From Escherichia phage Ec_O157kw: DNA of 64,000 nucleotides. Shown one piece after another: positions 7,698 to 7,760 of this stretch. Position 1 is the first letter of the stretch, and each line of letters begins with the position of its first letter. A program made the position numbers and the translations under genes. The stretch lies in the sequence record PV857777.1; one strand, given 5' to 3'. Under the pieces are notes generated by a model. It was not told where the DNA came from, made no database searches, and saw nothing but the letters and a program-made list of their open reading frames with translations.

Positions 7698-7721
7698 AGT
7701 CTCCTTCGGGAGACTTTTTTC
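7698..7721 (+). terminator. Rho-independent terminator (tetraloop hairpin + T-run)
   Basis: AGTCTCC-TTCG-GGAGACT followed by TTTTTT. Confidence 0.8.
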
Positions 7722-7730
7722 ATTTTACCG

Positions 7731-7760
7731 GTTTACTTTCCATTTGAGCTGTGATACTAT
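7731..7760 (+). promoter_or_regulatory. T4 early-type promoter
   Basis: GTTTAC at 7731-7736, -10-like GATACTAT at 7753-7760; followed by leader ACAACTATC and SD. Confidence 0.55.

Follow-up and report, generated by a model that had tools for sequence, protein, structure and literature searches.

Repeated early-promoter cassettes in the early-gene arm of a T4-like coliphage as probable expression modules and occasional crossover points

Introduction

Promoter-early stem-loop (PeSL) elements have been proposed to drive modular gene shuffling in T4-type phages. In RB49 and phi1, they are composites of ~100 bp that join a promoter and a stem-loop to a Shine-Dalgarno (SD) sequence and an ATG, with stem-loops lying between the -35 and -10 elements or overlapping the latter (Arbiol et al. 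2010, PMC2839356). Crossovers there fall between the -10 and the ATG, at the SD, or in an A/T-rich region, and chimeric elements persist after an open reading frame (ORF) has been lost. Encapsidated mini-circles joined within PeSLs were also reported for both phages, and a stem-loop-binding factor was speculated upon. Here, we examine repeated cassettes of this kind in a 64,000-nucleotide stretch of Escherichia phage Ec_O157kw (record PV857777.1; hereafter, the window), which an initial annotation had flagged as PeSLs. We conclude that the repeats are very probably paralogous T4-type early-promoter cassettes that are expression modules first and occasional crossover points second.

The layout, the crossover positions, and the chimeras described for RB49 and phi1 all have their likeness in the window. 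The differences lie elsewhere: RB49 has a near-perfect TTGACA/TATAAT promoter and polyG/polyC stems, and mini-circles have been shown in those phages. T-even elements have been called analogues, not homologues, of the RB49 PeSLs (PMC2839356). The PeSLs of the T4/PST pair come from the same phage group as the window (Comeau, Arbiol & Krisch 2014, PMC4122927). Their consensus, TTTACW-N17-TAYWAT, agrees with that of the window. So do the A/T-rich region before the promoter, a stem-loop immediately upstream, an SD and start codon that close the 3' end, and a link to indels and swapped ORFs.

Two further systems share parts of this design. T4 early promoters are combined UP/-35/TGn/-10 promoters with additional conserved positions (Hinton 2010, PMC2988021). 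The window promoters have the same -35, TGn, -10, A/T-rich stretch, and extra conserved positions, and likewise stand before early genes on the early-transcribed strand; the review treats transcription signals only and discusses no paralogy or recombination role. Lambdoid morons are also single accessory genes arriving with their own promoter and terminator. Their insertion is not thought to depend on conserved flanks (PMC2839356), whereas the junctions in the window lie in repeated cassette sequence.

Results and Discussion

The repeats are copies of an early-promoter cassette

The three sets of repeats proposed in the initial annotation are confirmed, and all are above chance. The 26-mer TTTTTTCATTTTACCGGTTTACTTTC occurs exactly twice (7715-7740 and 48015-48040), with 0 occurrences expected by chance (100 dinucleotide shuffles, 3 mismatches tolerated). 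It spans ten non-consensus bases between a T run and GTTTAC, and both copies sit behind stem-loops of like design (AGTCTCC-TTCG-GGAGACT and AAGGACTCC-TCCG-GGAGTCCTT). The cassette at 11283-11364 is identical to that at 37321-37402 at 70 of 82 ungapped positions, or 77 of 90 when extended through ATGAAAA, and the mismatches cluster in the promoter spacer. Both partial copies of this cassette are real as well. Positions 12740-12797 match the 37339 copy at 46 of 58 positions; for 57019-57085, the region upstream of the -35 together with the -10 region matches at 36 of 52, and TTGGAGAATAAAATG separately at 18 of 19. The third pair (15718-15750 and 60713-60745) agrees at 31 of 33 positions, and the 31-nt promoter within it differs by one base, the proposed G/A. 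The TAG in TAGTTTAC, which this promoter was said to overlap, is indeed the stop codon of the upstream gene in both copies (the ORFs end at 15720 and 60715).

The flagged pairs are also the extremes among all 153 pairs that can be drawn from the window's 18 early promoters. Identity reaches 39 of 40 positions between the leaders at 11302 and 37340 (mean of 153 pairs, 14.2; standard deviation, 4.6) and 15 of 16 between the spacers at 15721 and 60716 (mean, 6.9; standard deviation, 2.3), with 13 of 16 between the spacers at 12741 and 37340. Because the shared sequence extends beyond the promoter consensus, we read the flagged pairs as paralogous cassettes. The same cassette copies are present in T4, and the duplications are therefore old.

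A pattern search found 17 plus-strand [G/A]TTTAC-N18-TAnnnT sites before genes, which together with the 57013 copy give the 18 promoters (Table 1). The same pattern on the minus strand returned chance-like matches only. Apart from a degenerate -35 at 57013 (ATATAC) and ATTTAC at 43564, the eight flagged copies and ten others have GTTTAC-N18-TAnnnT, which sets TTTACa/t 17 nt before TAnnnT. The spacer ends in TGG, TGA, or TGT, an extended -10, at 16 of the 18 sites and in AGA or GAG at the remaining two. Upstream of several copies are AAAAATTTTTCAcAAA-type A/T-rich stretches, placed where UP elements lie and putatively acting as such. The leader is ~20 nt long with a GAGG-type SD, and the ATG follows the G of GTTTAC by 55-60 nt in 13 of 16 sites with a recognizable SD-ATG; the outliers are the two 'type-A' leaders (64 nt) and 57013 (73 nt). 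In 10 of 18 cases, the stop codon of the upstream gene falls 0-7 nt before GTTTAC. By the three bases after GTTTAC, the promoters sort into an AAG/AAA class (8 sites) and a TTT/TTC class (9 sites), the latter frequently continuing into CCTC, an anti-SD; the division may mark two promoter lineages or a functional split.

In the record of Escherichia phage SA20RB, the depositors annotated T4 early promoters and rho-independent terminators at positions homologous to the window cassettes; we also looked for promoter annotation in the T4 GenBank record, which lists none. Because the SA20RB annotation, the common layout, and the T4 early-promoter literature agree, we take the flagged copies to be T4-type early promoters with their leaders. 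They would be expected to fire immediately after infection, using unmodified host RNA polymerase. Each module runs from an A/T-rich stretch through GTTTAC, an 18-nt spacer ending in TGn, TAnnnT, and a leader with an SD to the ATG. Judging from the sequence match and the T4 literature, its first job would be very strong sigma-70 transcription of early genes.

Bona fide intrinsic terminators stand upstream of 3 of the 18 promoters (after rI.-1, nrdC.11, and soc), and a fourth stem-loop, at 37236, lies ~100 nt before its promoter; all four accompany flagged copies. Here the window differs from the T4/PST pair (PMC4122927), in that the upstream stem-loop described there is found at these 4 of 18 promoters, with many internal stem-loops instead. 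In the remaining flagged copies, the stem-loop is internal to the promoter. It forms at 12740 between the spacer and the SD region (-15.4 kcal/mol) and at 57013 from a 13-bp inverted repeat (ATCAGTAGTTGAT / ATCAACTACTGAT) on either side of the -10 (-20.1 kcal/mol); the ORF behind the 57013 copy has no counterpart in T4 or RB32. The copies at 15720 and 60715 have a common spacer hairpin, CCACA-AGGA-TGTGG (-10.4 and -8.2 kcal/mol; z only -1.4 and -1.7).

The repeats had been said to match PeSL elements, and they do so part by part: a stem-loop adjoins or overlaps the early promoter, an A/T-rich stretch is present, the SD and start codon form the 3' end, and an upstream stop codon forms the 5' end. 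Chimeric elements together with ORF gain and loss can be made out by comparison at the nrdC.11/nrdC.10 slot. ORFs that differ between relatives occur at 3 of 8 flagged copies and at 6 of 17 promoter junctions, a rate equal to that of other gene junctions. Every flagged copy fits the published composite, and the element is an already known one, with nothing new in kind. The stem-loop, whether an upstream terminator or embedded around the -10, would insulate the gene from incoming upstream transcription.

Crossovers fall inside three of the cassettes

Among 9-14 close relatives, the 11283, 37321, and 57019 cassettes lie at structural breakpoints, with crossovers inside the cassette. The slot between gene 43 and imm.1, which holds the 37321 cassette, exists in three states across ~500 records: with the 78-amino acid ORF of the window, with no ORF (T4, RB32), or with a different 83-amino acid ORF (T2, RB27, RB51, RB68). 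One promoter-leader is here fused to three different ORFs. In T2, the unrelated 83-amino acid ORF takes the place of 37410-37637. The window and T2 share an identical terminator and promoter as far as ...ACAACTATCAACTA, where they part: T2 goes on with the nrdC.8 cassette's leader and has an nrdC.8-type spacer as well. T4, RB32, and one IMG/VR genome are without 37417-37649, and in T4 and RB32, the type-A leader is joined directly to imm.1 at ATGAAAAT, with a 14-nt junction overlap. At the 57019 slot, T4, RB32, and four IMG/VR genomes are without 57094-57293, with an overlap of 8-11 nt just past the ATG.

The nrdC.11/nrdC.10 slot is occupied by tandem promoter-leader-ORF modules in seven architectures among ~14 related genomes or contigs (Table 1). 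In T2, an A/T-rich direct repeat of ~30 nt (TTTTATTTCAAAAATTTTTCACAAA) lies on either side of T2_097, and a stem-loop and promoter likewise occur on both sides. The nrdC.10 promoter of contig L255 equals the ORF-b promoter of L009 up to GGAGA and the nrdC.10 cassette thereafter. By this comparison, the L255 cassette looks to be a chimera joined at the SD, which is the expected outcome if ORF-b was lost by exchange between two cassettes.

ORFs may also move from one cassette site to another. T2_046, RB51ncORF048c, and IME08 orf92 are one small ORF family (54% identity). In Tequatrovirus, its members lie behind gene 43, in the gene 43/imm.1 slot and after an early-promoter cassette (T2 locus L046, 720-1050). 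In Dhakavirus IME08 (L252, 1700-1800), the T2_046 homologue lies directly behind rI.-1, after a terminator and an early promoter, and this rI.-1 slot is that of the window's 7715 cassette. Such comparative evidence suggests movement of ORFs between cassette sites, with crossovers spread over the A/T-rich region, the -35, the stretch from the -10 to the SD, and the SD/ATG. Mini-circle junctions published for RB49 and phi1 map to these portions of the element as well (PMC2839356).

T4 recombination accepts short homologies. Since the cassette copies share near-identical patches of 20-90 nt, phage recombination could occasionally use these patches as crossover points. Whole promoter-ORF modules would in this way be inserted, deleted, or swapped at cassettes, leaving chimeric cassettes behind. 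This is the PeSL model as published, and comparison shows it at three flagged sites.

Alternatively, the cassettes could be actively mobile, with a dedicated recombinase or nuclease acting, for example, via the stem-loop to excise and integrate ORFs site-specifically as mini-circles. We consider this very improbable, even though mini-circles form within the PeSLs of RB49 and phi1, where the stem-loop-binding factor was speculated upon (PMC2839356), and the nrdC.11/nrdC.10 slot is strikingly hot. Crossover positions are scattered over the A/T-rich region, the -35 GTTTAC, the -10-to-SD stretch, and the SD/ATG, with no single fixed site, and the stem-loops vary in sequence and position; both observations argue against a site-specific recombinase. 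Moreover, no recombinase gene is linked to the slots, and most copies are invariant.

Breakpoints favor gene junctions in general

We counted as events all insertions, deletions, or replacements of at least 30 nt in alignments with nine genomes, namely T4, T2, RB32, SA20RB (in part), and five Tequatrovirus genomes from IMG/VR that tile the window. Scans of IMG/VR and of metagenomes gave about five close relatives each for a region, and five further contigs, examined over window positions 1-20,700, were kept out of the junction statistic. BLAST end points are precise to ~10 nt, and the gene starts in the window are heuristic calls. We found 57 distinct events, and gene junctions account for 91 of their 114 boundaries. 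Early-promoter junctions are touched by 14 events, at 6 of 17 such junctions, and ~three quarters of the 57 are without an early promoter. Promoter junctions hold 15% of the boundaries in 3.6% of the sequence, an excess that belongs to gene junctions generally.

Several results weigh against reading the cassettes as paralogous copies that serve as crossover points. Breakpoints occur at 6 of 17 promoter junctions and at 38 of 106 others (Fisher odds ratio 0.98, P = 1.0), a comparison that, with nine genomes, has low power for a twofold enrichment. Events per junction are also alike (0.76 at promoter junctions versus 0.57 elsewhere; Mann-Whitney P = 0.87). Most indels are ORF-sized and precise, falling where stop and start codons tightly overlap (0-8 nt of homology), or are insertions of homing endonucleases or introns. 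Gene gain or loss is absent at five of the eight flagged copies, for four of them across ~500 genomes and for 48015 in seven comparators. A deletion in T2 (55405-56406), which starts ~30 nt into motB.2, ends directly ahead of the motB promoter, and removes motB.2 and the next ORF, keeps the promoters on both sides and is therefore not a promoter-by-promoter exchange. Last, the leader stretch TACTATAnAnCTATCAAC also occurs at unrelated promoters in other genera, and it may reflect a subclass consensus rather than common descent.

Contiguity in relatives was assessed for each of the five invariant copies. The 7715 cassette is contiguous in 499 of 501 Tequatrovirus records, 15720 in 466 of 493, and 60715 in 483 of 498. 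For 12740, 498 of 504 matches at the Tequatrovirus level are contiguous; a further 111 records, with 60-90% identity, seem to come from other genera. At 48015, megablast contiguity was 169 of 677, and the site was a candidate breakpoint. This was ruled out by sensitive blastn, which found it collinear at 80-91% identity in 7 of 7 comparators, and the low figure comes from flanking genes that have diverged faster, without gene gain or loss.

Mapped against breakpoints in T4-like genomes, as the initial annotation had suggested, 3 of 8 copies coincide with them and 5 of 8 do not. The copies at 11283, 37321, and 57019 do mark boundaries of accessory cassettes; those at 7715, 12740, 15720, 60715, and 48015, which had been assigned the same role, are contiguous or collinear in relatives. 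That the repeats 'drive' shuffling finds no statistical support. The absence of breakpoint enrichment over other gene junctions also separates the window from the published T4/PST comparison (PMC4122927), and it argues against cassettes as the main driver of gene-content change. Exchange of the PeSL type is a minority of gene-content change in this arm, ~a quarter of events, and is concentrated in three hot slots: the internal-protein (IP) gene promoter (450), nrdC.11/nrdC.10, and gene 43/imm.1. The IP promoter (450-479) is broken more often than any other junction in the window, by five different events that start at 434-504, and has an embedded hairpin. Frequent breakage of this promoter is a likeness to the T-even IP locus elements of Repoila et al. 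(1994), as these are described in PMC2839356.

The same data bear on a simpler account in which selection for one strong promoter/leader design explains the repeats, any gene junction tolerates insertions, and the cassettes have no recombination role. The equal breakpoint rates, the five copies without gene gain or loss, the documented extended consensus of T4 early promoters (PMC2988021), and the recurrence of TACTATAnAnCTATCAAC across genera are what it would predict. We nevertheless find it unlikely. Consensus alone does not account for identity of 39 of 40 bases in a leader or of 26 of 26 over non-consensus bases, nor for an nrdC.8-type spacer and leader in T2 where the window has a type-A leader. 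It is likewise at odds with the SD-joined nrdC.10 chimera of L255, with the A/T-rich direct repeats on either side of the extra ORF in T2, and with junction overlaps of 14-22 nt within the SD-ATG segment. We therefore prefer paralogous expression modules that are occasionally used as crossover points.

As modules of this kind, the cassettes would account for the ability of T4-like phages to express dozens of small accessory genes individually and still exchange them, a matter relevant to host-range adaptation and to therapeutic phage engineering. This point has been in the literature since 2010-2014. What we add is the junction-level control, which the published comparisons consulted do not describe: in this 64-kb arm, breakpoints favor gene junctions generally, not specifically those with a promoter.

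Other events in the window occur away from early promoters. They include the homing-endonuclease genes and intron mobB, mobC, mobD, segF, and I-TevII, and single-ORF insertions at overlapping stop/start codons (24541-24802, 34224-34444, 53891-54123, and 58193-58566). Hot slots without a promoter are the ORF at 46881-47717 (segF in T4), replaced in six different ways (RB32 replaces 46891 to ~47703), ~8706-8720 with three inserts (315, 441, and 592 nt), 46312-46333 with inserts of 899-1448 nt, and 18917-18929 with an insert of ~343 nt. The T2 deletion at 55405-56406 was also considered as an excision between promoters 55315 and 56417, and this was rejected; the junction retains two early promoters whose -35s are ~100 nt apart, and a nine-codon remnant of an ORF separates them.

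Hairpins embedded in the promoters

Hairpins with significantly greater stability than shuffled sequence enclose 10 of the 18 promoters. The mean z is -2.6 at promoters versus -0.4 in random windows, and eight hairpins have z ≤ -3.9. They share one layout, in which the left arm falls in the spacer, the loop holds the -10, and the right arm falls in the leader, often with the SD. The same hairpins are found in T4. In a set of 261 non-redundant cassettes of the early type from T4-like loci, a spacer fits the leader it stands with better than a swapped one does, with a mean minimum free energy of -11.4 versus -8.7 after swapping (standard deviation, 0.11). Sequestration of the SD by the spacer is not above the swap control in this set (20% versus 22%). 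We dropped SD sequestration as a general rule and therefore limit the claim to particular genes.

The clearest of these is regB. Its spacer always opens with CTCC or TCCTC, an anti-SD to which the SD pairs, and its inner stem is lineage-specific yet complementary (TCCTCTTGACTG / CAGTTAAGAGGA; CTCCTCTAGTTG / CAACTAGAGGAG; TCTCCTGTAAG / CTTACAGGAGA; TCCTCATTTG / CAAATGAGGA). The regB promoter region folds at -14.5 to -22.6 kcal/mol in 21 of 23 distinct orthologous sequences. For 12 lineage representatives, the mean is -18.5, compared with -10.9 (standard deviation, 1.0) when the 14 nt after GTTTAC are permuted among orthologs, and 0 of 500 permuted sets are as stable as the observed one. When the regB promoter regions were aligned with MAFFT, RNAalifold returned no structure, because the arms shift register between lineages. 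On the basis of per-sequence folding and spacer permutation among orthologs, the regB hairpin appears to be kept by lineage-specific arm matching in at least 12 lineages of T4-like phages, across genera. A review section on regB regulation makes no mention of it, and the promoter-overlapping stem-loops listed for RB49 PeSLs were read there as terminators (PMC2839356).

A comparable arrangement is established for the hairpins that sequester the ribosome-binding sites of T4 e, soc, 49, and I-TevI (Uzan & Miller 2010, PMC3014915). There, too, the promoter is inside the hairpin, the SD is in the 3' arm, and only transcripts started upstream can fold, a layout that regB, motB.2, and nrdC.8 share. 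The difference is that those are late promoters and late genes, whereas here an early internal promoter is involved. We tentatively suggest that at regB, and also at motB.2, nrdC.8, and IP, RNA from the gene's own promoter is translated and read-through RNA is silenced or attenuated, the likely effect because only RNA started upstream holds both arms. If so, each early gene would be translated only while its own early promoter fires, and the regB hairpin would bear on the sharp shut-off of early proteins such as RegB.

The embedded stem-loops might instead exist mainly for expression, tying translation to the origin of the transcript or attenuating read-through, with the repeats conserved on that account and recombination incidental. 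The hairpins at 10 of 18 promoters, the match of spacers to their own leaders, the regB pairing in 12 lineages with its 0 of 500 permutations, and the established logic of e, soc, 49, and I-TevI (PMC3014915) make this a serious possibility, if still short of probable. SD pairing over the whole set is no higher than in swapped cassettes, the type-A leader copies at 11301 and 37339 are without a hairpin, and the sequence shared between distant copies is left unexplained.

Table 1. Positions of the cassettes and related features in the window, and architectures of the nrdC.11/nrdC.10 slot.
Feature	Position	Strand	Elements	Comparison or source
Intrinsic terminator after rI.-1	7698..7715	+	AGTCTCC-TTCG-GGAGACT, T run	rho-independent terminator annotated in homologous SA20RB
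26-mer (7715-7740) and mobD.5 early promoter	7715..7789	+	-35 GTTTAC 7731-7736; -10 TACTAT 7755-7760; SD 7777; ATG 7789	also in T4
Intrinsic terminator after soc	47995..48016	+	AAGGACTCC-TCCG-GGAGTCCTT, T run	
Second 26-mer (48015-48040) and mrh.2 early promoter	48015..48087	+	-35 48031-48036; -10 48055-48060; SD 48075; ATG 48087	
Intrinsic terminator after nrdC.11	11251..11270	+	AGGGAGCC-TTCG-GGCTCCCT, T run	terminator annotated in SA20RB
A/T-rich stretch, nrdC.10 early promoter, type-A leader	11271..11372	+	-35 11301-11306; -10 11325-11330; SD 11355; ATG 11365	
Stem-loop after gene 43, ~100 nt before promoter	37236..37251	+	GGGACC-TCCG-GGTCCC, T run	
Early promoter and type-A leader of 78-amino acid ORF	37321..37410	+	-35 37339-37344; -10 37363-37368; SD 37393; ATG 37403	
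nrdC.8 early promoter, type-B leader	12740..12800	+	-10 12764-12769; SD 12785; ATG 12798; hairpin TTCCTCTGTGGTA with TACGGAGGAA	
A/T-rich stretch and early-type promoter	56994..57092	+	degenerate -35 ATATAC 57013-57018; -10 57037-57042; SD 57076; ATG 57086	
nrdC.5 TAG stop overlapping nrdC.4 early promoter	15718..15780	+	-35 15720-15725; -10 15744-15749; SD 15766; ATG 15778	
Topoisomerase large-subunit (39 fused with 60) TAG stop overlapping rIIA.1 early promoter	60713..60772	+	-10 60739-60744; SD 60758; ATG 60770	
Variable slot behind 37321 cassette	37411..37649	+		
Variable slot behind 57019 cassette	57094..57293	+		
18 early promoters	450, 3535, 7731, 8543, 11301, 12740, 15720, 23071, 37339	+	G of GTTTAC	pattern search
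18 early promoters, continued	43061, 43564, 48031, 50124, 51456, 55315, 56417, 57013 (degenerate -35, added to the pattern matches), 60715	+	G of GTTTAC	pattern search
Embedded hairpins	3535-3594 (regB), 450-495, 8543-8590, 12740-12790, 43061-43100, 55315-55365, 56417-56460, 57013-57060		-15 to -24 kcal/mol	
GC-rich hairpin copies	23919-23950, 27558-27589, 32268-32299, 34438-34469, 58816-58847			
nrdC.11/nrdC.10 architecture 1			no extra module	window, T4, RB32
nrdC.11/nrdC.10 architecture 2			ORF-a	L255
nrdC.11/nrdC.10 architecture 3			ORF-b	L253
nrdC.11/nrdC.10 architecture 4			ORF-a and ORF-b	L009
nrdC.11/nrdC.10 architecture 5			ORF-a behind promoter truncated from terminator arm to -10	L008
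nrdC.11/nrdC.10 architecture 6			T2_097 with own promoter, then second terminator and A/T-rich stretch	T2
nrdC.11/nrdC.10 architecture 7			ORF-c	L013, more distant relative

Genomic setting and other repeats

A 5-kb piece of the window matched 674 phage records, nearly all of them Tequatrovirus, with 98.5% identity to Escherichia phage SA20RB. In blastn against T4, the window is collinear, its plus strand being the reverse complement of T4 from ~66947 to 1. By these matches, it corresponds to the early-gene arm, running from gene e to rIIB, of a T4-like coliphage in Tequatrovirus. The gene order is e, vs, tk, rI, the mobD and nrdC genes, 49, nrdD, 55, a-gt, 47, 46, 45, 44, 62, regA, 43, imm, 42, uvsX, 41, 61, 56, soc, mrh, modA/B, srd, dda, dexA, motB, cef, 39, and rIIA. 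Almost all of the window's genes are on the plus strand, as befits an early-transcribed arm. Rfam, searched at the gathering score, gave 0 matches over the whole window on both strands.

Compared with T4, this phage is without mobD (other sequence takes its place at 9291-10237) and without the nrdD intron and I-TevII, mobC, and mobB (20585-20588, 21864-21884, and 26353-26378). Unlike in T4, its topoisomerase large-subunit gene is unsplit (60315-60367), without the mobA/60.1 insertion and without the gene 60 bypass segment.

Two other kinds of repeat occur in the window. A 49-nt direct repeat (94% identical; 44505-44553 and 44863-44911, 358 nt apart) lies at the 3' ends of two ORFs, 43917-44549 and the adjoining 44551-44907. 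A single copy, without the intervening 309 nt, is present in T4 and in three IMG/VR genomes, and RB32 annotates an ORF 'similar to gp61.2' in this region; the repeat looks like a tandem partial duplication of the 61.2 region. The second family is intergenic: a GC-rich hairpin with a UUCG-type loop occurs five times, as (A/G)GGGCTTCGGCCC(T/C) or AAGGCCTTCGGGCCTT (Table 1). These are probably terminators or RNA-stabilizing hairpins.

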